A DNA stretch of 64,000 nt, taken from the NCBI GenBank assembly GCA_003171035.1, contig PMXR01000109.1, forward strand, positions 29,019 through 93,018, read 5' to 3'. Shown here one piece after another: positions 3,947 to 42,727 of this stretch. Position 1 is the stretch's first letter; each line of letters opens with the position of its first letter. The stretch is from Chloroflexota bacterium. Its GTDB lineage: Bacteria; Chloroflexota; Limnocylindria; Limnocylindrales; CSP1-4. Both the position numbers and the translations under genes were made by a program. The notes beneath the pieces are model-generated. The model saw only the letters and a program-made list of their open reading frames with translations. It was not told the origin of the DNA and made no database searches.

Positions 3947-3999
3947 CGGGGGAGTGGAGCCGACACTCGGATTTGAACCGAGGACCTGCTGTTTACGAA
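3947..3999. repeat. 53-bp direct repeat copying the 3' half of tRNA-Thr, from the anticodon loop to 8 nt past the CCA. This is the distal att site of the island.
   Basis: It is identical to 17322..17374 on the same strand: cgggggagtggagccgacactcggatttgaaccgaggacctgctgtttacgaa. The match diverges exactly inside the anticodon loop. Confidence 0.8.
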
Positions 4000-4431
4000 C
4001 TGGAGCGGCCCTTACGCAGTGGCGCAAGCGTGGAAATTCGTGCGTAAGTCGCTCAGTTAGCAGGCCCTCGCGGTGTCGTCGTAGCCCTGCTGTCTGTTGC
4101 CTCCGAGGACGCAGTTGACGAGGCCATGGTACGCCTTCTTGGGCCGGACGAGGCCATGTCCGGCCGCACCGCGTGATCGGCCACGCCGCCCTAGCTCGAA
4201 CCCGCGACATTCTGCTTGGGAAATATCTGCGTGGGAACGGTATGTCTTCACGCGTGGAATCGAGTCCGAAAAGTGTCCATCTAGAGTGTCGGAACAAGCG
4301 CGGCTCGCGAGGTTCGCTCCGCGACCGGTTCGACGGTGCTCCTAGCCTGACGCAAGAGCGTTGCGCCCCTAATTCTGTACGTCCGAGTATTTGCGTCCGT
4401 CTATCATCGGCCGAGTGAAGCACCCACGCAG

Positions 4432-5511
4432 GTGGAGATGCGGCGAGGCGAGCGCATGTTGCAGATAGGCCGGCAGGATTCCTTCGAACGCGAGTACGTG
4501 GGGAAGTTCCGTTCGCTTGTCGCCAAATTCGGCGAGGTGGTCACCTACGAGAGGGACCGAGGGGCGCGGGACATCGGCGTGCACTTCACGCGAAGGCTTC
4601 CGTCTGACAATGAGGTCGTGTCGGCGGCTCTTTGCTGGTTCCAGCTGAAGGGCTTCATGGAAACCACGTTGTCGACAGAGGACTTCGAAAGCCAGGACGA
4701 GATAAGAATCTCGTTGGAAGTCCGTCACCTTCGCTACTGGTATCTGCAGCCCGTCCCTACGTACCTGGCCCTCTACGTGGCTAGCGTGGACGCTTTCCTG
4801 GTGCTCAACCTTAGCGACTACATAGCCACGACCTGGGGACCGGGCATTCTTGGTCTAGAACAGGAGTCGGCCACAGTCCGCATCCCCCGACGAAGCAGGT
4901 TGGATGAGCAGGCATTTGGGCTGATCATGGCCAAGTCCGATGGGGACGCTTGGGCCAGAGCCCTGGGAAAGGACGAGCTCATCGGCGACTCGTGCTATCG
5001 GGACTATCAGCTCATCTGGCACCTGGGCTCGGCACCGGACCGCGGAGTCCGACATCGAGTCGTGTTCTGGGATTGGCAGAGCAAGACGCGCAGCCAGTTC
5101 TGGTTCCAGGAGAAGCCCCCGGCAGGTGGCTCCTGGATCGACCTTCGCGAGCACTGGCAGTACATGATGGACGTGGCAGAACTCGAAGAAGCCTACCCGT
5201 ATGTTGAATTCTTTGATCCGCCATCGGAGGACATCGAAGGATACCCGGATTGGCTCGTCAAGACCAATTGGAACGAGGATGAGGCCATTCTCGGAGAGCC
5301 ACCCACGGTTGAACTACGGAACGGCGATGCAGTTCCCGGCCTGAATTGCATGGATGAGTACTTCAAGTACATCTTCGGTGCGAGGTTGAATGATCTGGGC
5401 TGGGATCTCTACGAATCAGTCGGGATCTTGCAGAAAGCCGGGTTGGTCGAGGTGGCTCCTGGCCAGAAGGAGAATGTCAGCGTCGCCCCCTGGCACTACC
5501 GAGCCGTGTGA
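4432..5511 (+). CDS. hypothetical protein with a restriction-endonuclease-like (PD-(D/E)xK-like, DUF4365-like) N-terminal domain and an uncharacterised C-terminal domain
   Basis: 359 aa. The N-terminal 160 aa carries D...(E/Q)xK-like elements (ERDRGARDIGVHF ... CWFQLKGF) that I recall from DUF4365-type nuclease domains. Codon usage is lower-GC than the flanking chromosome. It is the first gene inside the island. Confidence 0.45.
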   Translation: MEMRRGERMLQIGRQDSFEREYVGKFRSLVAKFGEVVTYERDRGARDIGVHFTRRLPSDNEVVSAALCWFQLKGFMETTLSTEDFESQDEIRISLEVRHLRYWYLQPVPTYLALYVASVDAFLVLNLSDYIATTWGPGILGLEQESATVRIPRRSRLDEQAFGLIMAKSDGDAWARALGKDELIGDSCYRDYQLIWHLGSAPDRGVRHRVVFWDWQSKTRSQFWFQEKPPAGGSWIDLREHWQYMMDVAELEEAYPYVEFFDPPSEDIEGYPDWLVKTNWNEDEAILGEPPTVELRNGDAVPGLNCMDEYFKYIFGARLNDLGWDLYESVGILQKAGLVEVAPGQKENVSVAPWHYRAV

Positions 5512-5575
5512 CGTTTGGTCCCGCCGGCCAGATCCGTCGCAGAAGTCCCTCAGTGTCGGATGGAGCTGCGACTCC

Positions 5576-5854
5576 CTACGGTCGGCCGGCCTCGAGAGTT
5601 TCTTGGATCTCTTCGGTCAAGGCCTGGACGTCGTGCGAAACACGACGATAGTCTTCCGACACCTGCATCTGGCTCCTGTTTGCCAGAAAGCTCAAGCGCT
5701 CAGACGCCGACCGAAGCAGCGTCACGACCTCCGAGTCCGGGCTCATGCGATTGCTGTCGGTCCAGCGATTGATGGCTTGGCTCGAGAGACCGAACAGCTC
5801 CTCATGCCACTCTCTTGAGTTCACCACCTGCAAGAGGGCCCGTTGGGCGCCCAT
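5576..5854 (-). CDS. small hypothetical helical protein downstream of the nucleotidyltransferase (possible third gene of the operon)
   Basis: Its ORF overlaps the NTase 3' end. An internal Met start (MGAQRALL...) at 5854 leaves a 17-nt spacer after the NTase stop. Composition is non-Arg-rich and coding-like. Confidence 0.3.
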   Translation of the reverse strand: MGAQRALLQVVNSREWHEELFGLSSQAINRWTDSNRMSPDSEVVTLLRSASERLSFLANRSQMQVSEDYRRVSHDVQALTEEIQETLEAGRP

Positions 5855-5871
5855 TCGATCGACAAACTCGC

Positions 5872-6498
5872 TCACTGCACGCTCACTTTCGCCATCAAGG
5901 CGCCCATCCATCGGTTGATCTCTGGCAGGTTCGACAGAACATGCGCAACGTCGTCTTCCGAGGGTCTAGCGCCGAATCCACGCGTAGACAGGATCCGGGC
6001 GTCGTCAAGGATCTTGCGCGACCTAGCGTCCAGAGCGATGCTGTCTGGGCCGATCCTGTCGCAGGCGCGTCGCGAGAAGACAGGCGAGGCACGGTTCATC
6101 AGCGAATAGCAGATTGCCATGTTCCTTATGGCCAGGAACATGGTGGCGAGTTCAAAGACGGCGGTGTCGCGGCGAGCAGCGAGCACGCCGGACGCCGCAA
6201 CGTATAGCTGGTTGAACTTTTCGCTATCTGCCCGCCAACTCATGTATGGCCCTGGCTCGCCCAACTCGCGTACGAAGTCGACGCCGTCCTCTGCAAAGAT
6301 CAAACGAGACTCTATGAACAGGTGCCAGGCGAAGGGATTGCCCTCCGTCCAGAGTTCCCTGAGTCGGGCATATGGATAGACGGAGTAGACGACAGGATCG
6401 AACCTCGAGTCGGGACCATCGACCGCCGCCAGAAGGTCAATGTCTGAGCCAGGCTCGACCTCGCCGCGACAGACTGATCCGTAAACGTAAATGTGCAT
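5872..6498 (-). CDS. minimal nucleotidyltransferase (Pol-beta superfamily) with a C-terminal helical domain
   Basis: The N-terminus reads MHIYVYGSVCRGEVEPGSDIDLLAAVDG, which is the canonical hG[GS]-x(9-13)-DhD nucleotidyltransferase motif. 208 aa. Its start is 4 nt after the stop of the upstream pentapeptide-repeat gene. Confidence 0.7.
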   Translation of the reverse strand: MHIYVYGSVCRGEVEPGSDIDLLAAVDGPDSRFDPVVYSVYPYARLRELWTEGNPFAWHLFIESRLIFAEDGVDFVRELGEPGPYMSWRADSEKFNQLYVAASGVLAARRDTAVFELATMFLAIRNMAICYSLMNRASPVFSRRACDRIGPDSIALDARSRKILDDARILSTRGFGARPSEDDVAHVLSNLPEINRWMGALMAKVSVQ

Positions 6499-6501
6499 CG
6501 T

Positions 6502-7386
6502 TCACCGCCGCGCGAACCGACGGACAAGGATGGATACGAACAGGCCAAGGATGACATACCGGGTCAGAGCGATCGCCGCGACGATCAGCCCCGGATAGCT
6601 GGGCGCTGTCGTGCCAAGGAACACCTGTGGAGCATCTGCCAGGGCGGAAATCCAGTCCTTGACTAGCACTGGATTCCTGGTAAGGAGCGTGTCAAGACTG
6701 GCAAGCAGGACCACGAGCGCGAGGGCGGTCCGGATGAGGTGGGAGGCGCTCTCGCCGTTCCCCCAAATGACGTCGCTAACCACGAACCTCAACCACGTGA
6801 AGAAGGCCTTGAGCCTGGCGGTGCCCGCGTACTTTTGCCGGTAGTAGGACTCGTTGCTCCGCCATGCCTTGCTCAGATGAACTCTCGTCGCGTGGAGCTC
6901 GACAAGTATCGCTTTGTTGACCGCATCGCGGTCACCGAGAGCTTCGTAGTTCGTGCGAAGTGTTCTGGCAAACCAGAGCTTTAGGTTCTCGAATGGCGGG
7001 CAACAGTTGTCCAGGATATCGCTATCGATGAGTGTTCTCTCGAACAGTGCATAGTCGAACTTGCAGCCCGAGAACGTGGAGCCATGGAAGCTGCTTCCGA
7101 CGAACCTGCACCCGGTGAAGTCGCACGAATCGAACGCGCACAGGCGTAGGTAGCAGCCATCGAATACGCAATACCTGAAGTCCACGTTTTCGAAGCGGAC
7201 CTTCTTGGCGCTGACTCGCTCGAAGATTCGGTTCGAGAGGACGACATCGGATACGTCGTCGACCCATTCCTTGTCGGTCTCGACGGTCCGCTTTAGAGGC
7301 TTCAGGGCGGATGCTGGCGCTTGCCCTGATCCATGATGATCGCGTCGCGGAAGTCGAACGGTGCCCAACGCGCTCCTCAAAGACAC
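6502..7386 (-). CDS. pentapeptide-repeat protein with a C-terminal transmembrane region
   Basis: Consecutive A(D/N)LxF-type pentads (FENVDFRYCVFDGCYLRLCAFDSCDFTGCRFVGSSFHGSTFSGCKF). The last 80 aa contain two hydrophobic helices (LALVVLLASL..., GLIVAAIALTRYVILGLFVSILV). Confidence 0.65.
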   Translation of the reverse strand: MSLRSALGTVRLPRRDHHGSGQAPASALKPLKRTVETDKEWVDDVSDVVLSNRIFERVSAKKVRFENVDFRYCVFDGCYLRLCAFDSCDFTGCRFVGSSFHGSTFSGCKFDYALFERTLIDSDILDNCCPPFENLKLWFARTLRTNYEALGDRDAVNKAILVELHATRVHLSKAWRSNESYYRQKYAGTARLKAFFTWLRFVVSDVIWGNGESASHLIRTALALVVLLASLDTLLTRNPVLVKDWISALADAPQVFLGTTAPSYPGLIVAAIALTRYVILGLFVSILVRRFARR

Positions 7387-7475: not shown

Positions 7476-8825
7476 TCAGATGGGCTTGTTCACTTGGAGG
7501 CCAACCCGGTAGTACCCCCTAGCTACCGCCCGATGCATCGTCGGATCGGCCGCCTGGTAGCGGCGGATAAGGTGCAAGCCCAGGCGCTGCTCGGCAGGCT
7601 CGTAGCTGCGGCACAGCATGTCGGTCGCGCGTTCCAGGTCGGGCCATTCACGCCGGTCGGCGAGGAGCGATGCTGCCTTCAGGGCCTGTCGGACCGTGCG
7701 ATGTCGCGCGGTGATAAGCACGGCAAGCTCGAGGCTGGTCATGTCCTCAAGGTCGAACGCCGGCGCGGTCTCGGGGGGCGACATGGAAGTGGCCCGCGTT
7801 TCGATGGCCGCAGGCTGAGCTGGCTCCTCGACGACCGAATCGATGACGGCGGCTAAGGGAACCGGCTCGGTGGGCTGGCGCTCGACGCCGTGCCAGAGCG
7901 GGCCGATGTCCTCGCGGCCGCCATTCGCGAGGAGTCTGATCCAGGCGGCCGAGCCAACCTCATAGTCGCTCCGCCGTGCCTTCGGATCCGTCGCGATCCC
8001 GCGAAGCGGACGAGGCTCGAGGCCCGCACCGATGGCCAGGACCTCGGCGTCCGCGCCTCGATCGGAGACGTCGCCGATCGCCACGCCCCAGCAACGGCCC
8101 GAGAGCATCGCGTCCTTCGTCGGGCCGGCGATCTGGCGTAGGCGTGCCAGGCGCTCGCGGCTGTTGGCAACCCAGAGCAGATGCCAGCCAACCTGGTGGT
8201 TCTCGAAGAGCTTGGCGTAGGAGCGAAGCCGGTCGCGGATCACCGGCGGCCGTTCGGTCGACTCGTCGACTTCGACGAGGATCACCGCCGATGCCTCGCC
8301 GGTGTCGATGACGACGAGGTGGTCGGGCTTGACGCCCCAGTCGTAGCCGAGGATAAGCCACTCGGGCCACCAGAGCTGCACGAGCCCCGGATCGTGGCGG
8401 ACGAGGGATGCCACGAACTCGACGCCATCGAGCGAGTGACGGGTCGTGATGAGACCTGGCGATCGATAGGCGTTGAGGTGGATGCGGCGTCGTCCGGATG
8501 AACTGAGTCGATAGGCGAGTGGGATTCCACCGCGTTCAGCGGGAAGGGATTCTCTGGTGACTAGATTCTGGAGTGCGAGCTTGCGTGTTCGTCGGAGAGC
8601 CGTGCGAAGGGATGGATACACAAGGGTGGCGAGCTGGCTAGCGGTGCAGACGCGGGCGTATTCGAGAAGGCGAAGGCAAGCACGGTCGGAGAGCGAGAGC
8701 AGGCTGACGTCTACTGGTGTATGGACATGAGCGGCAGGAGAAGGACGGTAGCTCATGTAAGTTGCATCCAATCCGCCGACCGATTGAGCGTGAAATCGCG
8801 ACATTGGGTTGTCGTGGGTCGACAC
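7476..8825 (-). CDS. replication-relaxation family protein (plasmid/AICE-type), putative
   Basis: 449 aa. The N-terminal winged-helix-like segment (LSLSDRACLRLLEYARVCTASQLATLV) resembles the replication-relaxation family found on actinobacterial plasmids and integrative elements. The assignment is from memory of that family, not from a search. Confidence 0.4.
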   Translation of the reverse strand: MSTHDNPMSRFHAQSVGGLDATYMSYRPSPAAHVHTPVDVSLLSLSDRACLRLLEYARVCTASQLATLVYPSLRTALRRTRKLALQNLVTRESLPAERGGIPLAYRLSSSGRRRIHLNAYRSPGLITTRHSLDGVEFVASLVRHDPGLVQLWWPEWLILGYDWGVKPDHLVVIDTGEASAVILVEVDESTERPPVIRDRLRSYAKLFENHQVGWHLLWVANSRERLARLRQIAGPTKDAMLSGRCWGVAIGDVSDRGADAEVLAIGAGLEPRPLRGIATDPKARRSDYEVGSAAWIRLLANGGREDIGPLWHGVERQPTEPVPLAAVIDSVVEEPAQPAAIETRATSMSPPETAPAFDLEDMTSLELAVLITARHRTVRQALKAASLLADRREWPDLERATDMLCRSYEPAEQRLGLHLIRRYQAADPTMHRAVARGYYRVGLQVNKPI

Positions 8826-9625
8826 CGTCCAACGTCAGTCCGATGCACCGCCCCGCGCCAGGTTTCGACGCCGCCGGCGGCCGGGCGGCGACAGGCACTC
8901 TGAAGTCCGCTCGGCTTCTGGGTGGCTGAGCGGCAGGTCGGGGTTCTTCGGTTGGGATCGGGACGCATCCTCGGGATCGAGCTACTAGTCGTCCAGGTAT
9001 AGGGTGCGAGGTCGTCGCGCGCGTTCTGCTCGCGCCCGGGCGGACAGATAGGCGAGGCGGGCGAAGTGGGCTGCTCGGGCATGCGCCGCACGCCGAGCGC
9101 GCTCTTCGGGTTCGAGCAGACCGTCGGGATCGACCTCTCGCTCGAACGACGACATAAAGGCGAGCCTCGCCGCCTTGGTCGTCTCGCGAGGGTCGTGGGT
9201 CGCGTGGAGTCGGTGCGCACCGATCCGCCCGCGAAGGGCCTGACTGGCCCGTTCTGTTTCATCCATCTCCAGATGCGTCCTCGTCCTTCGGTGGTGTTGC
9301 CCGGCGCTTCGACTGAAAGCTCCTGCCCTGCTGGGAGGCGAGCCGTCACTCGATCGCCGGGATGTTGCTCGTCTCGCTCTGGCCTCCTGCTTGACCGCGC
9401 CTGGGGCCGAGATCAGGAGGCGGAGCGAGAACCAGCCGACCCTAAGCCTTCATCGGCTGGTCCGCAAGACATTGTGTACAATACCAGGTACGTGTCTCAC
9501 TGTACGGGTTGTCGCTTCAATCTCGTCCACATAATGCCTTGTCCGGAGAGCCCAGCCGGAGTACGGTGACGCCGAAGACCACATCGAAAGGACACGTCGT
9601 GACCATTGGTGGCGTTCTCGAAGCC

Positions 9626-10195
9626 ATGGGAATGCGGGAGTTGCGCGCCAACCTTCGGGCAGTCGTCGAGAAGGTGGAAGCGGGCAACCCGGTCGTGTGC
9701 CTCAAGGACGGGCAGCCCCTCGCGGTCATGATCAGCCACGAAGAAGCCGAGCACTGGCGCAAGATCGAAGATGCGCTCGCGGTCCTCCATGCGCTTCGCG
9801 TGTATCCGGAAGCGTTGGCTGACCCCTCGGAGCTTGCCGATCTCGCCTCGCTCCAGCGGCCCGACCTCGCCACAATCCGAAGGCTCACGTCGGAGCCTCG
9901 GGCGATCCTCTCGCCGCTACGGACGATCGGCGTCTCCGATGCCCGGGCGGCCTTCGCAACCCTCGTTGGCGAGGTTGCTCAGGGCCGGGTCCGAACGATC
10001 GTCGCGAAAGGTCATCTCGCCGTCGCAGTCATCCCGGCGCCGGAATACGACAGACTCCGCGCCATGAACCGAGTCGTCAGTTGGTTTCGCGGTGCCGGCC
10101 TGGACCTGGCCACCGCGCCGGAACAGCAGGTCATCGACTTTGTCACCAACAACCGCGCCGGGACCGGCGCGGCGCAGCAACAGTCGGCAGGGTAA
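9626..10195 (+). CDS. tandem Phd/YefM-type antitoxin-domain protein
   Basis: Two successive Phd/YefM-like modules: MRELRANLRAVVEKVEAGNPVV...AVMISHEEAEHW and RAAFATLVGEVAQGRVRTIVAKGHLAVAVIPAPEYDRL. The ATG at 9626 was chosen over the longer ORF starting at 9509. Confidence 0.45.
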   Translation: MGMRELRANLRAVVEKVEAGNPVVCLKDGQPLAVMISHEEAEHWRKIEDALAVLHALRVYPEALADPSELADLASLQRPDLATIRRLTSEPRAILSPLRTIGVSDARAAFATLVGEVAQGRVRTIVAKGHLAVAVIPAPEYDRLRAMNRVVSWFRGAGLDLATAPEQQVIDFVTNNRAGTGAAQQQSAG

Positions 10196-10263: not shown

Positions 10264-10611
10264 GTGTGGGAGATCGAAGGCACGGACCAGTTCGCTGACT
10301 GGTTCGGCCAGCTAACCAGAAGCGACAAAGTAAGAGTCGAAGCCGCGATCGAGCGGCTCGAAGAAGAGGGTCCCGGCCTCGGTCGTCCTTGGGTCGACAG
10401 CCTCGTCGGGACGAAGGTCAAAGAACTCAGACCGCGCGGCGGATATCTCCGGATCTTGTTCCGCTTCGACCCTCGGAAGACGGGAATTCTCCTGACGGCC
10501 GGGAACAAGGAAGGCCTCTGGGATCAGTGGTACAGGACCGCGATCCCGGACGCAGAGAGGTTCTACGAAGCCTACGTCGCCGAGTTGCGGAGAGAAGGAC
10601 TACTGAAATGA
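10264..10611 (+). CDS. type II toxin-antitoxin system RelE/HigB-like toxin (addiction-module killer family)
   Basis: 115 aa. Its stop overlaps the start of a downstream XRE-type HTH gene as ATGA, the arrangement typical of HigB/HigA modules with the toxin first. Confidence 0.55.
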   Translation: MWEIEGTDQFADWFGQLTRSDKVRVEAAIERLEEEGPGLGRPWVDSLVGTKVKELRPRGGYLRILFRFDPRKTGILLTAGNKEGLWDQWYRTAIPDAERFYEAYVAELRREGLLK

Positions 10612-10949
10612 CGACGAGCAAGTTCCGGACGATGCGGCAGGAGATGCTCGACGACCCTGCCTTCCGGGCCGAGGTGGCTCGAGAGAAGGCCATCATGGCC
10701 GAGATCGATCTGGCGGCCGCGCGCCAGACCAGTGGCATGACCCAGGAGGCCGTGGCGGCCGAGATGGGCAAGTCGCAGGAGAACGTCTCCCGGATCGAGC
10801 GCCAGCGCGACGTACGCGTTTCCACCCTGGCGCAGTTCATCCAGGCCCAGGGTGGTGAGCTGGAGATCAACGCCGTCTTCTCTGGCAAGCGCGTCAGCCT
10901 GATGAGGGCCGCAGGGGCGCCAGTCAAGGCAAGCCGCCAGCGCGCCTAA
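10608..10949 (+). CDS. XRE-family HTH antitoxin (HigA-like)
   Basis: 113 aa. The helix-turn-helix reads SGMTQEAVAAEMGKSQENVSRIERQRDVRVSTLAQFIQA. Translationally coupled to the upstream toxin. Confidence 0.55.
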   Translation: MTTSKFRTMRQEMLDDPAFRAEVAREKAIMAEIDLAAARQTSGMTQEAVAAEMGKSQENVSRIERQRDVRVSTLAQFIQAQGGELEINAVFSGKRVSLMRAAGAPVKASRQRA

Positions 10950-12263: not shown

Positions 12264-12983
12264 CTACAGGGCCGCGAGACGGCTGAGCGCGATGATTCCG
12301 TCCGTGGCGCCCGCGATTCCGCGCCACTCCGCGTTCGCCGGATCAAGTAGCTGCTCATGAGCGCGCAGGTAGCCGCGTTCCTTGGCGGTTAACTGGGAGC
12401 GCATCTCCTCGATGTTCGAGACGAGCACCAAGAGTCTGGCGAGATCCCGCAGATGTTTCGCGAGTGAACTGCTGGAAGCGGCCCTGGCCTTGATGACCAA
12501 TGCGCCTGCCAGTGTCGGCACCGGAAGTTTGAACACGTCGCCGAGGACGTCGATCGTCACTTCGCGCCGGCGATGCAGCGCCTGCGTACCTCCGACGGTC
12601 TCGAGGGTCGTGCCTGGCGGCGAAGTGGTCAGGTCTGCCCGAGGCCCGAGGTTCTCTGGCGCGAGCACGTCCACAACGTCGTCGCCTCGGACGAAGCGGT
12701 AGCTGAGACCGTCGTTAGTCAGCTTTGCGGTGAACCCGACCGACTCCAGCCGCCGGGCGGCCTCTTGGGTTGCGCCGGTGAGCGCCCGCACGTCCATCAG
12801 CGCGTCCACGTCCCGAGTCGCGCGCCCCGTCCTGCCGCCATGCTCGCGTTCGAGAAGCGTGACCATTTGGCCGCCGATCAGGACCCACGGCAGCCCGGCG
12901 AGGAGATCGGCGATCTCGTGCGTGACTCGCCAGAGCCGCTCCTCTGCGTCGTCTCTGGGGACTATGACGATTGGGCGCTCCAT
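12264..12983 (-). CDS. nucleotidyltransferase, AbiEii/AbiGii-like toxin family (type IV TA)
   Basis: 239 aa. Contains a GG...DVD nucleotidyltransferase-like segment (LIGGQMVTLLEREHGGRTGRATRDVDAL). The start overlaps the upstream AbiEi-like gene stop as ATGA. Confidence 0.5.
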   Translation of the reverse strand: MERPIVIVPRDDAEERLWRVTHEIADLLAGLPWVLIGGQMVTLLEREHGGRTGRATRDVDALMDVRALTGATQEAARRLESVGFTAKLTNDGLSYRFVRGDDVVDVLAPENLGPRADLTTSPPGTTLETVGGTQALHRRREVTIDVLGDVFKLPVPTLAGALVIKARAASSSSLAKHLRDLARLLVLVSNIEEMRSQLTAKERGYLRAHEQLLDPANAEWRGIAGATDGIIALSRLAAL

Positions 12984-13663
12984 CAGCGCTGATACCGATC
13001 GAACAGCTGGTTCGCAGCTTCCTGTGAACGCGGGTCGGCGTCGTCGGCCAGGTCGATGGCCACGACCGAGCCGGGCGCAAATGGGCGAGCGGGCCAGCCG
13101 GGCGTGAGCGCTGGCGTCGTGCGTAGCATGAGGTTGGGCTGCTGGCCCTCGATCAGCTTGTACTTGTCGACCAGGGTGTCGAGGCGTTCTCTCGTGACGT
13201 ACGCGTCGAACTCGTCGGCCGGCAACAGATCGAGGCCAACGTCGCGCGCGGCTGAAACGCCGGTGCGCATCAAGCCCGACTCGCGCCGGATTGACGCGAG
13301 GTCCGATGGGTGGGCGCGAAACTGGCGGCGTTGGGCGCGCGTCACCAGCCGCGGGCGCAACGAGGCAAGGTCGTGGCGGGTGATGAAATTACGGAGCTTC
13401 GCGCGCGACACCGGGTCGAGCCACGGCGCATCGAGGCCGTCGAGCAGGAACAGCAGACCCCACGCCCGCTGTGGCGAGAAGCGGCGACCATCCAGGGTTC
13501 CTAGCTGTGCTCGGCGATCCACGCTCGCCGCGTCTATCAGCAGGACGCGTCCGAAGTGCCGCGCTACAAGCTCGCCGGATGCGATCAGCGTTCGTACCCG
13601 TCCGGCCGTAACGCCGAGTCGAAAGGCGGCTTCAGGGACTGACAGATCTCTTTCCTCAACCAT
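12983..13663 (-). CDS. AbiEi-like antitoxin / transcriptional regulator (winged HTH, N-terminal)
   Basis: 226 aa. N-terminal HTH-like segment (VPEAAFRLGVTAGRVRTLIASGELVA). Translationally coupled to the downstream NTase-like gene. Confidence 0.45.
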   Translation of the reverse strand: MVEERDLSVPEAAFRLGVTAGRVRTLIASGELVARHFGRVLLIDAASVDRRAQLGTLDGRRFSPQRAWGLLFLLDGLDAPWLDPVSRAKLRNFITRHDLASLRPRLVTRAQRRQFRAHPSDLASIRRESGLMRTGVSAARDVGLDLLPADEFDAYVTRERLDTLVDKYKLIEGQQPNLMLRTTPALTPGWPARPFAPGSVVAIDLADDADPRSQEAANQLFDRYQR

Positions 13664-13763
13664 GGTGATAACAGCATAGTTGAGGAAATCGTCGCGTCAA
13701 GCCGCTAAGTTCGGAGCGTCGAGATGAGCCTCTTGGCCCAAAGCCGATCGCTATCCTGACGAT

Positions 13764-14669
13764 ATGATCGGCTCGCGCGACATCGAGATCAGGCGCGCCG
13801 TGTTCGACTGGCTGACCGAGCAGCGCCAGGAACACGGTGAGGCGCTGTCGCGCGCATCGCTCGAGTCGTTCTCGTTGGGCGGCAAGCGGATCCCGCTGGT
13901 AGGGCCAGCGGGTATCTGGAAGCCCGCGGTCTGCGAGCTGCCGGTTTCGATCACGACGGTCGTGCGCGGACCGTACGACGACGCGTTCGACGAGCGGACC
14001 GGGAGGCTCTCGTACGCCTACCGAGGCACGGACCCAACTCACAAAGACAACGTCGGTCTGCGGACCGCCTGGGCGGAGCGCGTCCCCCTCGTCTATTTCC
14101 ACGCGCTCGAGCCGGGGGCATATGTCGCCTGGTACCCCACGTTCGTTGTCGGCGACGATCCGGTGGCTCTGAGGTTCTCCGTCCAGGTGGACGACATCTC
14201 CGCTGCGTACGCGGTCTCGAGCCGTCAGGTCGCCGACGGCACGGAGGAGGCGCGCCGCGAGTACGTGACTCGGACTGTGCGCCAGCGGCTCCATCAGGAA
14301 CGCTTCCGCGAACGGGTATTGCATGCCTACCAGGACCGATGCGCACTTTGCAGCCTGCGGCACCAGGAGTTGCTCGACGCGGCCCACATCACGCCGGACA
14401 GCCACCCCGAGGGCGAGCCAGTCGTGAGCAATGGCGTCGCGCTCTGCAAACTTCACCATGCCGCGTTCGACCGTCTCTTCTTCGCGGTCCGGCCGGACTA
14501 CGTGATCGAGGTCAAGCCGTCGATCCTGGCCGAGCATGACGGGCCGATGCTCGTCGTCGGCCTGCAGCAGATCCACGGCAAGCTGCTGCTCCTACCGCGG
14601 CGGCCGTCGGATCGCCCAGATCCCACAAGGCTCGAACGGCGTTACGCCGACTTCCTGCGGGCAAGCTGA
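13764..14669 (+). CDS. HNH endonuclease domain protein (restriction-like), with an uncharacterised N-terminal domain
   Basis: C-terminal HNH motif with paired Cys/His ligands: CALCSL...LDAAHI...NGVALCKLHHAAFD. 301 aa. Confidence 0.55.
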   Translation: MIGSRDIEIRRAVFDWLTEQRQEHGEALSRASLESFSLGGKRIPLVGPAGIWKPAVCELPVSITTVVRGPYDDAFDERTGRLSYAYRGTDPTHKDNVGLRTAWAERVPLVYFHALEPGAYVAWYPTFVVGDDPVALRFSVQVDDISAAYAVSSRQVADGTEEARREYVTRTVRQRLHQERFRERVLHAYQDRCALCSLRHQELLDAAHITPDSHPEGEPVVSNGVALCKLHHAAFDRLFFAVRPDYVIEVKPSILAEHDGPMLVVGLQQIHGKLLLLPRRPSDRPDPTRLERRYADFLRAS

Positions 14670-16253: not shown

Positions 16254-17189
16254 TCAATACTTGTCGCTCGGCGCGATCCTCCGATAGGCGGCGATCGCGC
16301 GGTCGGTGCCGGCGGAGGCCGCATAGCGCGCCACCATCTGGCGGCTTCGCCAGCCTGCCAGACGCAGGAGGTCGGTTTCCTGCATTCCGGCGGACAGCAG
16401 CGTGTGGGCGAACAAATGCCGGAACGCGTGGGCGCCGATACGCGGCAAGCCTGCCGCTTCGGATCGTCGTTCGAGGATGTCGCCGATGCCGTCACTACGG
16501 ACAGGACCATTGTGGCCGAGCCAGAGTTCCGGCCGAGCGGCGTCGCGGTGGGTTCGGCGTTCCCGCAAGTAGCGATCAAGCGCCTGGGCGGTTCGCGGTC
16601 CAAAGGTGATGATCCGAGGGCGGCGACCCTTACCCAACACCGTCGCCGTCTTCTCGCGCAGATCGATCGAGTCGACCGTGAGCCCCGCGATCTCACTCCG
16701 GCGGGCGCCCGAATCGAGGAGCAGACGGATGAGCGCGACATCGCGACGGTCGTTGAATAGACGGCCCTCGCAGGCGCGCAAGAGGGCGCGGACGGCGTCC
16801 TCGCCAAGCAACGGGACCGGCTCCTCCGGCACCCGGGGCGGGCGCATCCGCAGCATCGGCGACGCCTCGGTCATTTCCTCCTCGGCCAGCCAGTCGAAGA
16901 ATCGCTTGAGTGCGAGGTAGCGATTTCGGGCGGTGTTGGGCCGCCAGCGCGCGATCTGGTCGGCGATGAACGCCTCGACGTGCTCGCGTCGGATGCTCGC
17001 GGGCTCGGTGGGCATGGCCCGTTCGACGAGAAACCGGCCCAAGAGGGCGACCGCTTCCTCGTAGGTTCGAAGTGTCTTTGGGGCCAGATTCTCGGCCTCG
17101 CAGGAGAGCAGGAACGAATCTAGCTCGGCCTGGAAGGAATCGGGCAGGGGGATCGAAGGGGCGGTCGGCAAAGGGCTTTTGGTACGCAT
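16254..17189 (-). CDS. tyrosine-type site-specific recombinase/integrase (XerC/XerD-like)
   Basis: C-terminal catalytic region reads HAFRHLFAHTLLSAGMQETDLLRLAGWRSRQMVARYAASA (the R...HxxR...Y signature). It lies immediately beside the tRNA-Thr att site. Confidence 0.8.
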   Translation of the reverse strand: MRTKSPLPTAPSIPLPDSFQAELDSFLLSCEAENLAPKTLRTYEEAVALLGRFLVERAMPTEPASIRREHVEAFIADQIARWRPNTARNRYLALKRFFDWLAEEEMTEASPMLRMRPPRVPEEPVPLLGEDAVRALLRACEGRLFNDRRDVALIRLLLDSGARRSEIAGLTVDSIDLREKTATVLGKGRRPRIITFGPRTAQALDRYLRERRTHRDAARPELWLGHNGPVRSDGIGDILERRSEAAGLPRIGAHAFRHLFAHTLLSAGMQETDLLRLAGWRSRQMVARYAASAGTDRAIAAYRRIAPSDKY

Positions 17190-17321
17190 ATAGCGCCTCC
17201 ACGGCTGCTCCGGAATGCGTACCCCGAGTGCAAGTTAGCAGGTCTTCGAGCCTTGTGGCGAGCCCCGCGGCCCCGTTGCGCCCCTCGGAAGACGAGATAG
17301 CAGGTCTTCCTGAGCGTGGAT

Positions 17322-17374
17322 CGGGGGAGTGGAGCCGACACTCGGATTTGAACCGAGGACCTGCTGTTTACGAA
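17322..17374. repeat. integrase-proximal att copy; the 3' half of tRNA-Thr, identical to 3947..3999
   Basis: Exact 53-bp match to the distal copy. Confidence 0.8.
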
Positions 17375-17404
17375 ACAGCTGCTCTACCGCTGAGCTATGT
17401 CGGC
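17330..17404 (-). tRNA. tRNA-Thr (anticodon CGU)
   Basis: Manual fold of GCCGACATAGCTCAGCGGTAGAGCAGCTGTTTCGTAAACAGCAGGTCCTCGGTTCAAATCCGAGTGTCGGCTCCA. The acceptor stem has 7 of 7 pairs. D, anticodon and T stems are all paired. The anticodon loop is TTCGTAA and CCA is encoded. Confidence 0.85.
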
Positions 17405-17512
17405 GCGACCGGGATCGTATCACGCCGATCGGTGGGCCACGACCAGAACCGCTCGAAACCCGCGTGCCGCCGGCCGTCGGCGCGAAAGAATGTCAGGTCA
17501 GACGCGCTCCGC

Positions 17513-19720
17513 ATGGGTAGGATGATCGCCATGCAAATTGCCACGCTTCTCCGCCGGTCGGTCGGACCGCTGCTGATCTCCGGATGGCTCCTGGGAGCGT
17601 CGTCGGGGGCGTTGCTGCTCCCGGCCGGGACGGCTGCGGCCCAGCCCGTGCCGATGCTCACGAGCCAGATCACCGACCAGGCCGGCGTCCTCGGCTCCGG
17701 CGAGTCGGGCGTGCAAACGGCCCTGGACAACCTGCTCGCCCGGGACAACGTCCAGGTCTGGGTCGTGCTGGTGCAGTCCGGCAACGGAACGAGCGCGCCG
17801 GACCTCGCGACCCAGATCTACGAAGCCAACGGTTTCGGCGGCAACGACTTCGTGTTGCTCGTCGCCGTCAACGACCACCGCTACGGCTGGGCCGAAGACA
17901 CCGCCACCGGCCTGCCCGGGTCGCAGATCGACAGCTTGATGAGCGCCCAAATGGATTCGCACTTCAAGGCCGGCGACTACTCCGGTGGCATCGTCGCGTT
18001 CGTCGACGCGCTGGGCACGGAGGTCGGGGCGGCCCGGTCGGGCGGCGCGAAGCCGACCGACTACACGGGCGGCGACACTGCCAGCCCCTCTGGCTCCGGC
18101 AGCACCGTAAACATCGACACATCGGGTCTCGCGGCGGTCGCCTGGACCTTGATCGCGATGCTCATCATCGGCTTCGGCTTCATCCTGATCTGGCTCTGGT
18201 TCCGCTCATGGCGGAGAGGTCGCCTCAGCGCTGAGGAGCGCGACAAGCAGACCGGCGATCTGGCGCGCCAGGCCAACCAGCTGCTGGTCGGCACCGACGA
18301 TGCCGTGACCGAGGCTCAGCAGGAACTCGGTTTCGCCCAGGCGGAGTTCACCGACGCCGACTGCGCGCCGTTCGCCGCCGCCATCACGACCGCCCAGGCG
18401 GAGCTCAAGCAAGCCTTCACGTTGCGCCAGCAGCTCGACGATTCAACACCCGAGGATCCGCCGACACGAGCGACGATGCTCGGCCAGATAATCGCCCACT
18501 GCCAGACCGCCAATGCGGCGATGGACGCCGAGGAGCAGCGGATCAAGACGTTGCGTGACCTCGAGAAGACCGCGCCGGATGTGCTGGCGGCGTTACCAAA
18601 GTCGATCGACGCGCTCCAGGGCCGGCTGCCCGCGATACAGGCCGCGACGAAGAGGCTCTCCGCCTACGCGGCGTCGAGCTGGAGCGCCGTCAAGGGCAAC
18701 GCCGAAGAGGCCGACAAGCGGGGCCACTTCGCCGAGACGCAGGTCGCGGCCGGCAACGCGGCCCTGGCGGCGAACCCGCCCGACCACGCCGCCGCCGCTC
18801 GCTCGGCCCGGGCAGCTCAAGAAGCAGTGGCCAAGGCCAACCAGCTGCTCGACGCCGTTGACCAGCTGGCCGACGCCCTGGACAGCGCCAGGGACAAGCT
18901 CGCCGACGAGGCCGGCTCGGCGGAGTCTGACCTCAAGGCCGCCAAGGCGGCATTCGAGGCAGACCCAACCAGCCCGGCAGGGGCCACCTGGGCCGCGGAC
19001 ATCGCCAGGGCCGAGACGCTACTGAAGACCGCCCAGGCAGGCGGCCCGGCCGCGGCCGGGGACCCGGTTGCCGCGCTGAAGGCAGCCCAGGACGCTCACG
19101 CCGCGGCCGACGCGGTGCTGTCGGGTATCCGCGACGAGTCCTCGCAGCTGGCCCGCAACAAGACGGCCTTCCAGGTCGCGCGCGCATCGGCGGCGGGGAG
19201 CGTCAGCCAGGCCAGCGCCTTCATCACTTCACGCAGCAACGGTGTCGGCACCGCAGCTCGTACGCGGCTGGCAGAGGCTCAGCGGCACCTGGCCACGGCC
19301 GACTCGCTGGCAGCCACAGACCTCGCCACGGCCACGACCGAGGCCGGAGTCGCCACCAACATGGCGAACTCGGCGTACACGCTGGCGAGCGGCGACTTCG
19401 TCGACTTCGAGCGCGGCGGCAGGCCGGGCGGTGGCTACGGCGGCGGCTACGGCGGCGGTGGCGGTGGCGGGGTCGGGATTGGCGGCGCCATTCTGGGCGG
19501 CATCATCGGCGGCATGCTCAGCGGCGGCAGTCGCGGCGGCGGCTTCGGCGGAACCCCGTGGGGATCCGGCGGAGGTTGGACCGGAGGCGGCCACTCCGGC
19601 GGCTTCGGCGGCTTCGGCGGTGGGGGCGGCTTCGGCGGTGGGGGCGGCATTCACAGCGGCGGAGGCAGCTTCGGCGGCGGTGGCGGTGGCGGCACCCACA
19701 GCGGCGGAGGCGGCTGGTAA
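17513..19720 (+). CDS. TPM-domain protein (YgcG-like) with a signal peptide, transmembrane helix, long Ala-rich helical region and Gly-rich C-terminal tail
   Basis: Signal-like N-terminus (MQIATLLRRSVGPLLISGWLLGASSG). TPM/TLP18.3-like region (ITDQAGVLG...NVQVWVVLVQS...NDFVLLVAVNDHRYGW). TM helix at WTLIAMLIIGFGFILIWLW. The C-terminus is GGGYGGGYGGGG...GGGW. The upstream part of the longer ORF overlaps the integrase and tRNA, so the ATG at 17513 was chosen. Confidence 0.55.
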   Translation: MGRMIAMQIATLLRRSVGPLLISGWLLGASSGALLLPAGTAAAQPVPMLTSQITDQAGVLGSGESGVQTALDNLLARDNVQVWVVLVQSGNGTSAPDLATQIYEANGFGGNDFVLLVAVNDHRYGWAEDTATGLPGSQIDSLMSAQMDSHFKAGDYSGGIVAFVDALGTEVGAARSGGAKPTDYTGGDTASPSGSGSTVNIDTSGLAAVAWTLIAMLIIGFGFILIWLWFRSWRRGRLSAEERDKQTGDLARQANQLLVGTDDAVTEAQQELGFAQAEFTDADCAPFAAAITTAQAELKQAFTLRQQLDDSTPEDPPTRATMLGQIIAHCQTANAAMDAEEQRIKTLRDLEKTAPDVLAALPKSIDALQGRLPAIQAATKRLSAYAASSWSAVKGNAEEADKRGHFAETQVAAGNAALAANPPDHAAAARSARAAQEAVAKANQLLDAVDQLADALDSARDKLADEAGSAESDLKAAKAAFEADPTSPAGATWAADIARAETLLKTAQAGGPAAAGDPVAALKAAQDAHAAADAVLSGIRDESSQLARNKTAFQVARASAAGSVSQASAFITSRSNGVGTAARTRLAEAQRHLATADSLAATDLATATTEAGVATNMANSAYTLASGDFVDFERGGRPGGGYGGGYGGGGGGGVGIGGAILGGIIGGMLSGGSRGGGFGGTPWGSGGGWTGGGHSGGFGGFGGGGGFGGGGGIHSGGGSFGGGGGGGTHSGGGGW

Positions 19721-42185: not shown

Positions 42186-42727
42186 TCCTTCGTCAGATCG
42201 TCTTCATAGAAGACGCACTGATTGAAGCGCGGCGTCAGGCAGACGTCGTTGACGTAGCCCTGCTCAAGATGGACGCCGCCGCGGAGCTGGCAGCGGGAAA
42301 CGTTCTGCTCCTGGCGGATCAGCGCCTTTAGCAGATGCGGCGCCTGGATCGGGATGGCACCGCGGCTGCCGGTCATGTAGAAGTGCGGGCAGACGTTGCG
42401 GCGCAGGCTCGGAAGACCAAAGCCGCCACGGGGCAGCGGCATCGTCGGGTAGCGCTGCGAACCAGGCTCGGCATGGGTGATCACCGGCATGCGCGGAGCG
42501 GTCGGGGTCGTGACCCGGCCGGCAGGCCGCGGATAGCCGGCAGGCCGCGGATAGCCGGCAGGCCGCGGATAGCCGGCAGGCCGCACGTAGCCGGCAGGCT
42601 GCACATACGAGGGCCGCATCCCGGGCCGCAGGCCGGGATTGTGGCCCGGGCCGCCATCGGGGCTTCGGGGCCGATCTGGCTTAGGGTCGCGTGCCTGCAC
42701 TGTCGCCTCGAACCGAAGCGGACGCAC
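42182..42727 (-). CDS. hypothetical Cys-containing protein with an N-terminal PAGYPR tandem repeat
   Basis: 181-aa ORF whose stop overlaps the folC start as ATGA. An 18-bp DNA repeat encodes (PAGYPR)x4. The C-terminal 100 aa are non-repetitive and carry 4 Cys. Confidence 0.3.
   Translation of the reverse strand: MRPLRFEATVQARDPKPDRPRSPDGGPGHNPGLRPGMRPSYVQPAGYVRPAGYPRPAGYPRPAGYPRPAGRVTTPTAPRMPVITHAEPGSQRYPTMPLPRGGFGLPSLRRNVCPHFYMTGSRGAIPIQAPHLLKALIRQEQNVSRCQLRGGVHLEQGYVNDVCLTPRFNQCVFYEDDLTKD

Follow-up and report, generated by a model that had tools for sequence, protein, structure and literature searches.

A predicted DREN-family nuclease fused to an acidic domain of undescribed fold, a candidate single-gene defense effector at the edge of a tRNA-Thr island

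A single gene at the edge of an integrative island in a Chloroflexota bacterium raises the question of what a nuclease-like protein with no evident partner does there, and what would hold it in check. The gene lies near one end of a 64,000-nucleotide (nt) stretch of contig PMXR01000109.1 (assembly GCA_003171035.1, positions 29,019 to 93,018, forward strand), which we analyzed as a whole and call the window. Its product joins a known type of effector nuclease, the DREN or DUF4365 domain, to an undescribed and putatively controlling domain, and it belongs to a small, horizontally scattered family. The explanation that fits the observations best is that the gene encodes a self-contained, trigger-activated effector nuclease for anti-phage or anti-plasmid defense, a reading that we regard as evenly poised between right and wrong.

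The original prediction, made from the letters of the DNA, took the gene to be the open reading frame (ORF) 4432..5511 on the forward strand, which encodes 359 amino acids (aa) from a GTG codon. The ORF listing contains this frame with both of the peptides that had drawn attention, DRGARDIGVHF and CWFQLKGF, and the description stands except for the start, which is almost certainly the ATG at 4456, judging from sequence comparison. In a 36-sequence alignment, M9 coincided with the first residue of all 35 homologues, including the 90%-identical protein P0001 (351 aa). A Shine-Dalgarno motif, GAGG at 4445-4448 (+), is situated 7 nt 5' of the ATG and reads GAGGTGG in the related contigs L001-L003, and the GTG codon at 4432 reads GTC in three sister contigs. 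The exact 351-aa product has moreover been called independently on a 218,795-nt contig of a Joint Genome Institute (JGI) metagenome (3300037049, Ga0334846_000011), where the adjoining gene calls also agree. Because the homologue starts, the Shine-Dalgarno motif, and the independent gene calls coincide, we place the gene (DREN nuclease plus acidic C-terminal domain) at 4456..5511 (+); the longest ORF begins 24 nt earlier, at GTG 4432. Residue numbers in this text count from that GTG, and subtracting 8 gives the numbering of the 351-aa protein. A search at E ≤ 1e-3 retrieved 128 homologues, the majority of which cover 97-98% of the query. Against L001, whose DNA is 87% identical, the ratio of nonsynonymous to synonymous substitution rates (dN/dS) was 0.14, with 0.10 in the N-terminal and 0.17 in the C-terminal domain. 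By these comparisons, purifying selection is seen to act on both domains, and the ORF is to be read as a genuine gene, a chance ORF being excluded.

The N-terminal part, residues 9-154 (4456..4893, +), was assigned to the DREN/DUF4365 branch of the PD-(D/E)xK nucleases from Pfam, Foldseek, and the order of helices and strands of the nuclease core. Pfam PF14280 matched residues 26-167 with an E value of 3.5e-8 and 34 bits, compared with a gathering score of 24.3, over profile positions 8-137 of 139. The AlphaFold2 model of the full-length protein, built from the 36-sequence alignment, had a mean predicted local distance difference test (pLDDT) value of 88 and a predicted template modeling (pTM) score of 0.81. 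In a Foldseek search of the PDB, all 11 matches at E ≤ 1e-3 were DREN-APAZ chains of SPARDA systems (9qbp, 9qcc, 9jt2, 9jsz, and 9vx6), with E values of 1e-5 to 3e-4 and domain-sized alignments of ~150 columns at a root-mean-square deviation of ~4 Å. Sequence searches of the PDB gave nothing relevant for the single protein and 0 matches at E ≤ 1 for the family profile, and no NCBIfam family matched the protein. Profile search and structure prediction with Foldseek thus recovered both DUF4365 and the DREN fold, as the original prediction had supposed from an acidic and QxK pattern.

The active site could be aligned residue by residue through a bridge protein, P0210 (294 aa). This protein carries a canonical DUF4365 domain (E 4.5e-26) and matched SPARDA DREN chains at E 2e-8 to 1.5e-6, and its C-terminal part is 30% identical to that of the gene product (E 1e-12). 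In the bridge alignment, DTGIDGQIEI corresponds to DRGARDIGVHF, GVQVKSG to CWFQLKGF, and DLAYW to HLRYW. The segment D42-R-G-A-R-D47 (4555..4572, +), whose D42 and D47 lie on strand 2, is accordingly a DxGxxD variant, one residue longer, of the metal-binding DxGxD of DUF4365, with D42 corresponding to its first Asp, and Q71-L-K73 (4642..4650, +) is the predicted catalytic QxK on strand β3. Because of the alignments through P0210, D47, Q71, and K73 are taken as the counterparts of D41, Q60, and K62 of NbaDREN, whose mutants lose both nuclease activity and defense (PMC12205087; bioRxiv 10.1101/2023.06.08.544223). The equivalents of Q71 and K73 in TmuRE, Q62 and K64, are essential (PMC10810196), and the DxGxD...QxK residues D42, D46, Q66, and K68 of EAT16 are needed for its toxicity (PMC11297309). 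Across the 36 sequences, which are 39-90% identical, D42, D47, G49, H51, W69, F70, Q71, K73, and G74 are invariant, with Q71 and K73 completing the motif, and E19 in helix 1 is conserved in at least 90%. The protein is therefore very probably a DREN-family nuclease in which the catalytic set E19/D42/D47/Q71/K73 is complete. Its domain identity and conserved catalytic residues suggest that it would be active as a nuclease.

The second half of the protein was the part for which a Trp/Tyr-rich domain of roughly 200 aa had been noted, and residues 155-359 indeed contain 11 Trp and 10 Tyr. This part is acidic, its isoelectric point being 4.5 and its net charge averaging about -18; the N-terminal domain is slightly basic on average (+2.6 in 36 homologues). 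Modeled alone (pLDDT 86, pTM 0.82), residues 155-359 begin with two long helices that lead into a beta-rich domain. The linking helices, residues 155-205 (4894..5046, +), comprise H159-178 and H182-199 at a pLDDT of ~90 and contain the invariant residues D158, D191, and R204. The beta-rich, acidic, and family-specific domain that follows, residues 206-359 (5047..5508, +), has K218, R220, E227, P256, Y257, E309, A352, and W354 as invariant residues. One of its loops, residues 262-296 (5215..5319, +), is acidic, varies in length, and is partly disordered (pLDDT <50 at 273-281); its net charge is -8 here, compared with a mean of -7.7 and a range of -18 to 0 over the 36 homologues. The protein ends with the tail SVAPWHYRAV (5479..5508, +; consensus SVAPWHxRxV), in which S350, P353, H355, and R357 are conserved in at least 90% of the sequences in addition to the two invariant positions. 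Because the full-length model reached the pTM score given above, the two domains are predicted to have a defined mutual arrangement.

No known family accounted for the C-terminal module. In the C-terminal domains of 26 members, Pfam gave no credible match at E ≤ 10; HemS, matched in 3 of 26 members with E 0.0095 at best, and SUKH (one member each) were treated as noise. Foldseek with the C-terminal model gave no PDB match at E < 0.05 and none at E < 0.008 among the viral structures of BFVD, and its GAF/LasR-like leads, with template modeling scores below 0.2, were likewise set aside as noise. A degenerate second copy of the nuclease was ruled out by hhalign, which gave the N- and C-terminal profiles a probability of 0.2%. 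An exhaustive search of 1.84 billion cluster representatives with the C-terminal profile found only 105 proteins at E ≤ 1e-3. Where the protein is full length, the domain occupies about residues 147-340 of ~340 aa, essentially always behind DUF4365. The sole exception in architecture is P0200 (892 aa), in which the domain is fused to an E1 dehydrogenase, probably as an artefact of gene calling or assembly. Database records label the members "DUF4365 domain-containing protein" or "hypothetical protein," and no description of DUF4365 combined with this C-terminal domain was found in the searchable literature.

The closest characterized relatives of the nuclease are the DREN-APAZ effectors of NbaSPARDA, XauSPARDA, and TmuRE-Ago, which have the same N-terminal DUF4365 nuclease and the same D...QxK constellation. 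Both the SPARDA effector and our gene product are built of two parts, with the nuclease at the N terminus and a regulatory module, proposed as such here, behind it. Unlike SPARDA, the gene product has no APAZ domain: an APAZ identity was ruled out since Foldseek gave no such match for the C-terminal part, although the PDB library holds many DREN-APAZ chains. Nor was a gene for a short prokaryotic Argonaute (pAgo; MID-PIWI) found in the window or at ~26 related loci. The neighbors of the gene in the window are instead an attachment (att) site and a convergent three-gene unit encoding a 111-aa protein, a nucleotidyltransferase, and a pentapeptide protein. Lacking APAZ and pAgo, the gene has no nucleic-acid guide machinery, and its trigger and route of activation must therefore differ from those of SPARDA.

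What is known of SPARDA bears directly on how such a protein might be controlled. Isolated DREN is monomeric and shows no detectable nuclease activity, and Argonaute filaments bring it into D2 tetramers that act as an indiscriminate DNase/RNase (PMC12205087). Where both APAZ and Argonaute are missing, the assembly of DREN must therefore be controlled in another way, and a regulatory partner domain is to be expected. The only candidate controller here is the C-terminal module, which is inherited together with the nuclease, is acidic, is under purifying selection, and is predicted to pack against its partner. We propose that this module serves in regulation or sensing and would keep the DREN nuclease inactive, possibly because its acidic loop or its tail occupies the DNA-binding surface at rest. 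An infection-associated cue would cause the module to permit oligomerization and thereby activation of DREN, and the activated nuclease would degrade the nucleic acids of both cell and invader, amounting to a single-gene defense of the abortive-infection type. The gene itself is cargo of its island, carried at the edge farther from the integrase and beside a slot whose content can be swapped. For these steps our confidence differs. A function in defense is favored slightly over its absence. The specific mechanism of autoinhibition and triggered activation is tentative, with the balance clearly against it. Equally doubtful is the more detailed idea that the new acidic, Trp-rich fold is both an inhibitor, through a DNA-mimicking loop or tail, and a phage or plasmid sensor, which would provide Argonaute-independent control of DREN, with sensing, oligomerization-driven activation, and abortive DNA/RNA degradation all combined in one 351-aa polypeptide.

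Two other DUF4365 proteins have a similar two-part layout. Divona is a single-gene system of a Vibrio cholerae chromosomal integron with experimentally demonstrated anti-phage activity (bioRxiv 10.1101/2024.07.02.601686). Like our family, it consists of one gene with an N-terminal DUF4365 nuclease and a non-nuclease C-terminal domain and is carried on mobile elements near integrases. In contrast to Divona, whose C-terminal domain is Crr6 (PF08847), our family has no Crr6 and is set apart by the published description of Divona's domains; at the Pfam level, a Crr6 identity was ruled out, as PF08847 was absent from 26 of 26 members even at E ≤ 10. EAT16 of Photorhabdus likewise has two domains, the N-terminal one being DUF4365 with DxGxD...QxK (PMC11297309). 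EAT16, associated with an extracellular contractile injection system (eCIS), kills Escherichia coli by means of the equivalent motif residues (PMC11297309), from which one might suppose that our protein too is a toxin exported against competitors as eCIS or polymorphic-toxin cargo. Whereas EAT16 is tied to its contractile injection system, none is present at this gene, no secretion or injection genes occur in the island or beside the homologues, and no immunity gene adjoins. The C-terminal domain is also specific to the family and conserved and is not the delivery domain of other toxins. We consider export extremely unlikely.

The composition of the C-terminal domain also bears on whether the protein could be a type IV-like or other solitary restriction enzyme that acts directly, with the C-terminal domain reading a DNA feature and the host being spared. 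A single PD-(D/E)xK gene in a mobile island, with no conserved methyltransferase partner, would suit such an enzyme, as would the C5 methylase found as one of 82 neighbors of the homologues, and an aromatic-rich domain could in principle shape a base-binding pocket. A strongly acidic C-terminal part, however, would be unusual for a DNA reader. Pfam and the PDB fold search recognized no known DNA-reader domain in it, including modified-DNA readers of the SRA, EVE/YTH, and winged-helix types, and the DREN nucleases characterized so far are indiscriminate. Taken together, a restriction enzyme of this kind is unlikely.

The distribution of the family was examined with a sequence pattern and tblastn in one genome per species. 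Among 185,579 species, 23 loci were found, spanning Chloroflexia, Anaerolineae, gamma- and alphaproteobacteria, Desulfomonilia, Nitrospirales, Kofleriaceae, Acidobacteriota, Ignavibacteriales, and a cyanobacterium; the source record of one homologue names a metagenome-assembled genome of Nitrososphaera, which is archaeal. No family match was found by tblastn in 50,697 phage records, and 72,556 plasmids gave 1 match, on the megaplasmid of Ruegeria pomeroyi DSS-3 (35% identity). An all-versus-all comparison of ORFs within 6 kb of the gene found no neighbor family common to more than 2 of 26 loci, in agreement with the earlier description of the protein as standalone. The family is rare, scattered across phyla, and not core. 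Of the two outcomes that would have spoken against the original prediction, a missing nuclease fold and a conserved core gene, neither was found: the protein matches SPARDA DREN folds, and its gene is rare, patchy island cargo.

Such a scattered occurrence of a single gene would also be explained by the homing-type spread of a selfish, free-standing endonuclease to specific sites. DREN tetramers resemble the PD-(D/E)xK homing endonuclease I-Ssp6803I (PMC12205087). The family is very patchy, has no conserved neighbors, and recurs near tRNA genes, which lie 34 nt (L027), 1.1 kb (L018), and 1.5 kb (L012) 5' of homologues. The contexts of insertion are nevertheless heterogeneous, with no recurrent target gene, and neither an intron nor an intein was seen to host the gene; integrase-driven islands clearly carry it both in the window and in R. 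pomeroyi. To our knowledge, known homing enzymes do not have a large acidic extra domain. A homing endonuclease is thus very unlikely.

Some of the neighborhoods resemble those of immune genes. On the R. pomeroyi DSS-3 megaplasmid (NC_006569.1, record 71380-88480; locus L035), the homologue WP_011241866.1 belongs to an island that also encodes an integrase, AlpA, and a GIY-YIG nuclease and that ends at a tRNA-Phe. The homologue is located directly 5' of an AAA_15/AAA_21 (DUF2813) ATPase and a UvrD-like helicase, a Gabija-like pair. The locus of Halomonas sp. G15 (L011; JAJSPA010000027.1, 2793-9309) contains the family member together with a second, shorter DUF4365 protein (282 aa), two NERD proteins, and DUF2971, and looks like a small nuclease-rich island within 7 kb. 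TIR, HNH, and SNase genes accompany the homologue at one further locus and a CHAT-PNP protein at another. Among the 82 neighbors, the C5 methylase, a SNF2 helicase, a protein kinase, a PemK toxin, and two transposases occur as isolated cases. The context of the homologues is often, not always, mobile or immune, and we do not claim a strong enrichment in defense islands.

In the window itself, the mobile context is explicit. Within a 13.4-kb integrative island at a tRNA-Thr, the gene comes first after the att copy farther from the integrase, as the original prediction had placed it. This att copy (3947..3999, unstranded) is an exact 53-nt repeat consisting of the 3' part of the tRNA-Thr plus 8 nt and is identical to 17322-17374. 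ARAGORN and Rfam found no intact tRNA at 3947..3999. At the other end, the integrase-proximal copy overlaps the 3' part of tRNA-Thr(CGT) at 17330-17404 (together 17322..17404, -), the sole tRNA of the window; the Rfam scan detected tRNA and no other RNA family. A tyrosine integrase (16254..17189, -; Pfam Phage_integrase, E 5.9e-23, with SAM-like N-terminal domains) adjoins the intact tRNA. The GC content is 0.59-0.65 within the island and 0.66-0.70 in the flanks. Direct repeats of a tRNA 3' end, an integrase beside the intact tRNA, and a dip in GC content, the marks of an island integrated at a tRNA by a tyrosine recombinase, are thus all present.

Comparison with close relatives suggests how the edge of the island is organized. 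L001-L003 encode a 90%-identical protein, and their DNA is 87% identical to window 4208-5553. L001 additionally matches window 7530-8376 at 79% identity, in the gene for a Replic_Relax protein (7476-8825, -), and between 5553 and 7530 no match of L001-L003 to the window was found. In place of the three-gene unit of the window, the corresponding interval of L001 (1463-7771) holds the gene for a 1992-aa STAND NTPase with an Avs1b match of E 8e-26. Because L001 and the window share the flanking genes and differ between them, the gene adjoins an exchangeable cargo slot. It lies at the island edge in all close relatives. L002 opens (1-45) with the 3' end of a tRNA in reverse complement, TGGAGCGGGAGACCGGATTCGAACC, which directly abuts the point at which shared homology begins; this suggests that relatives integrate at a different tRNA with the gene again at the very edge. 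At ~4190-4215 of the window, ~200 nt inside the present att copy, there is a degenerate look-alike of a tRNA end, CCTAGCTCGAACCCGCGAC, which may be the relic of an older attachment site.

Between the att copy and the gene, 4208..4455 (+) is a conserved, putative leader or promoter region with ~87% identity to L001-L003, the homology beginning at ~4196-4208. This stretch of ~250 nt 5' of the gene is regarded as non-coding because relatives differ in it by 1-nt and 7-nt indels; these break the reading frames, by which the small ORFs between the att copy and the gene were ruled out. As far as the sequences tell, nothing credible is encoded in 3999-4456. A terminator scan at the gene was uninformative.

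The constancy of this edge could also be understood if the gene served the element itself, either as a Hjc/RecU-like, structure-specific nuclease working with Replic_Relax in the replication, recombination, or transfer of the island or as an addiction or toxin module that stabilizes the island. L001 retains both the gene and Replic_Relax while the intervening cargo is swapped, and the position at the edge is constant in close relatives. The topology of DUF4365 is akin to that of Hjc resolvases: DREN has been reported to share the PD-(D/E)xK core topology with archaeal Hjc and Hje, as well as the QxK variant of the active site with TnsA of Tn7 (bioRxiv 10.1101/2023.06.08.544223). The full-length model matched the PrfA/RecU resolvase weakly in Foldseek (E 0.1-0.2), a likeness at the level of the fold only. 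In contrast to the gene product, Hjc/Hje, RecU/PrfA, and TnsA belong to the core proteins of DNA repair or transposition and lack the C-terminal domain. Homologues in other phyla occur without Replic_Relax or any other common neighbor, and many of them are found among housekeeping genes with no recognizable element. An addiction module is further opposed by the lack of a conserved antitoxin-like small gene, as the 250 nt on the 5' side are non-coding and the gene on the 3' side differs between the window and L001. A role in maintaining the element is thus quite unlikely.

Against the proposal of a triggered defense nuclease, several observations have to be set. The roles of the C-terminal domain in sensing and autoinhibition are suggested by charge, conservation, and analogy. 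No established PADLOC system was matched by the family. The PADLOC candidate PDC-M02A gave a weak, partial match to residues 93-156 (E 3.3e-4), and the PADLOC model for an Argonaute-associated REase likewise matched only weakly and in part. The 82 neighbors, taken from 17 genome loci, are mostly housekeeping genes, and the enrichment in defense genes is modest. A scan for the sigma-70 consensus found no promoter for the gene, although such a scan does not cover organisms with other promoter types. PDC-M02A was matched, again weakly and in part, by 14 of 36 members (best E 6e-6), and PDC-M02 could not be traced in the searchable literature.

DREN is known chiefly as the collateral nuclease of SPARDA, and its Argonaute-gated activation has already been used for nucleic-acid detection. 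The present family shows DREN wired to a different, uncharacterized domain, without a partner gene. If the gene does serve defense, it would be among the smallest DREN-based systems, and the domain behind its nuclease would represent a new module for sensing or inhibition; if it is merely a solitary restriction-like nuclease, it would be a routine cargo gene of an island. The domain assignment itself will not surprise specialists. With its Argonaute-independent architecture and a C-terminal fold for which no match was found, the protein is a reasonable candidate for testing, and R. pomeroyi is a cultured, tractable host of a family member. The segment between the gene and Replic_Relax is moreover a cargo hotspot of tRNA-integrating elements in which immune-type genes are exchanged.

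The remaining genes of the island were annotated as follows. The three-gene unit directly 3' of the gene, convergent with it, consists of the 111-aa protein (5576-5911, -), the 208-aa nucleotidyltransferase (5872-6498, -; Pfam NTP_transf_2, with a weak match to the PADLOC candidate PDC-S09), and the pentapeptide-repeat protein (6502-7386, -). The first two of these genes share a 40-nt overlap. Beyond Replic_Relax, a 228-aa Phd/YefM-like protein with two Phd/YefM-like stretches is encoded at 9509-10195, and a Gp49/HigB-like toxin at 10264-10611 with an HTH_3 partner ending at 10949. The segment 9509-10949 thus resembles a toxin-antitoxin cluster, and a comparable HigB/HigA pair is found 1.8-2.2 kb from the homologue in L024. 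An AbiEii-like nucleotidyltransferase (12264-12983, -), a sub-threshold match, adjoins an HTH_17 protein (12983-13663, -). An HNH endonuclease follows at 13764-14669 (+; Pfam HNH_2, 2e-9; PADLOC HNH, 2.7e-20); nearly all of its coding region is covered by an antisense ORF (13656-14576, 306 aa) that is probably spurious.

Two repeats were also observed in the window. An 882-aa ORF with a TPM domain (17072-19720) contains Gly-rich imperfect repeats at 19410-19692, and four to five tandem copies of the 18-nt unit GCCGGCAGGCCGCGGATA are present at 42518-42607.

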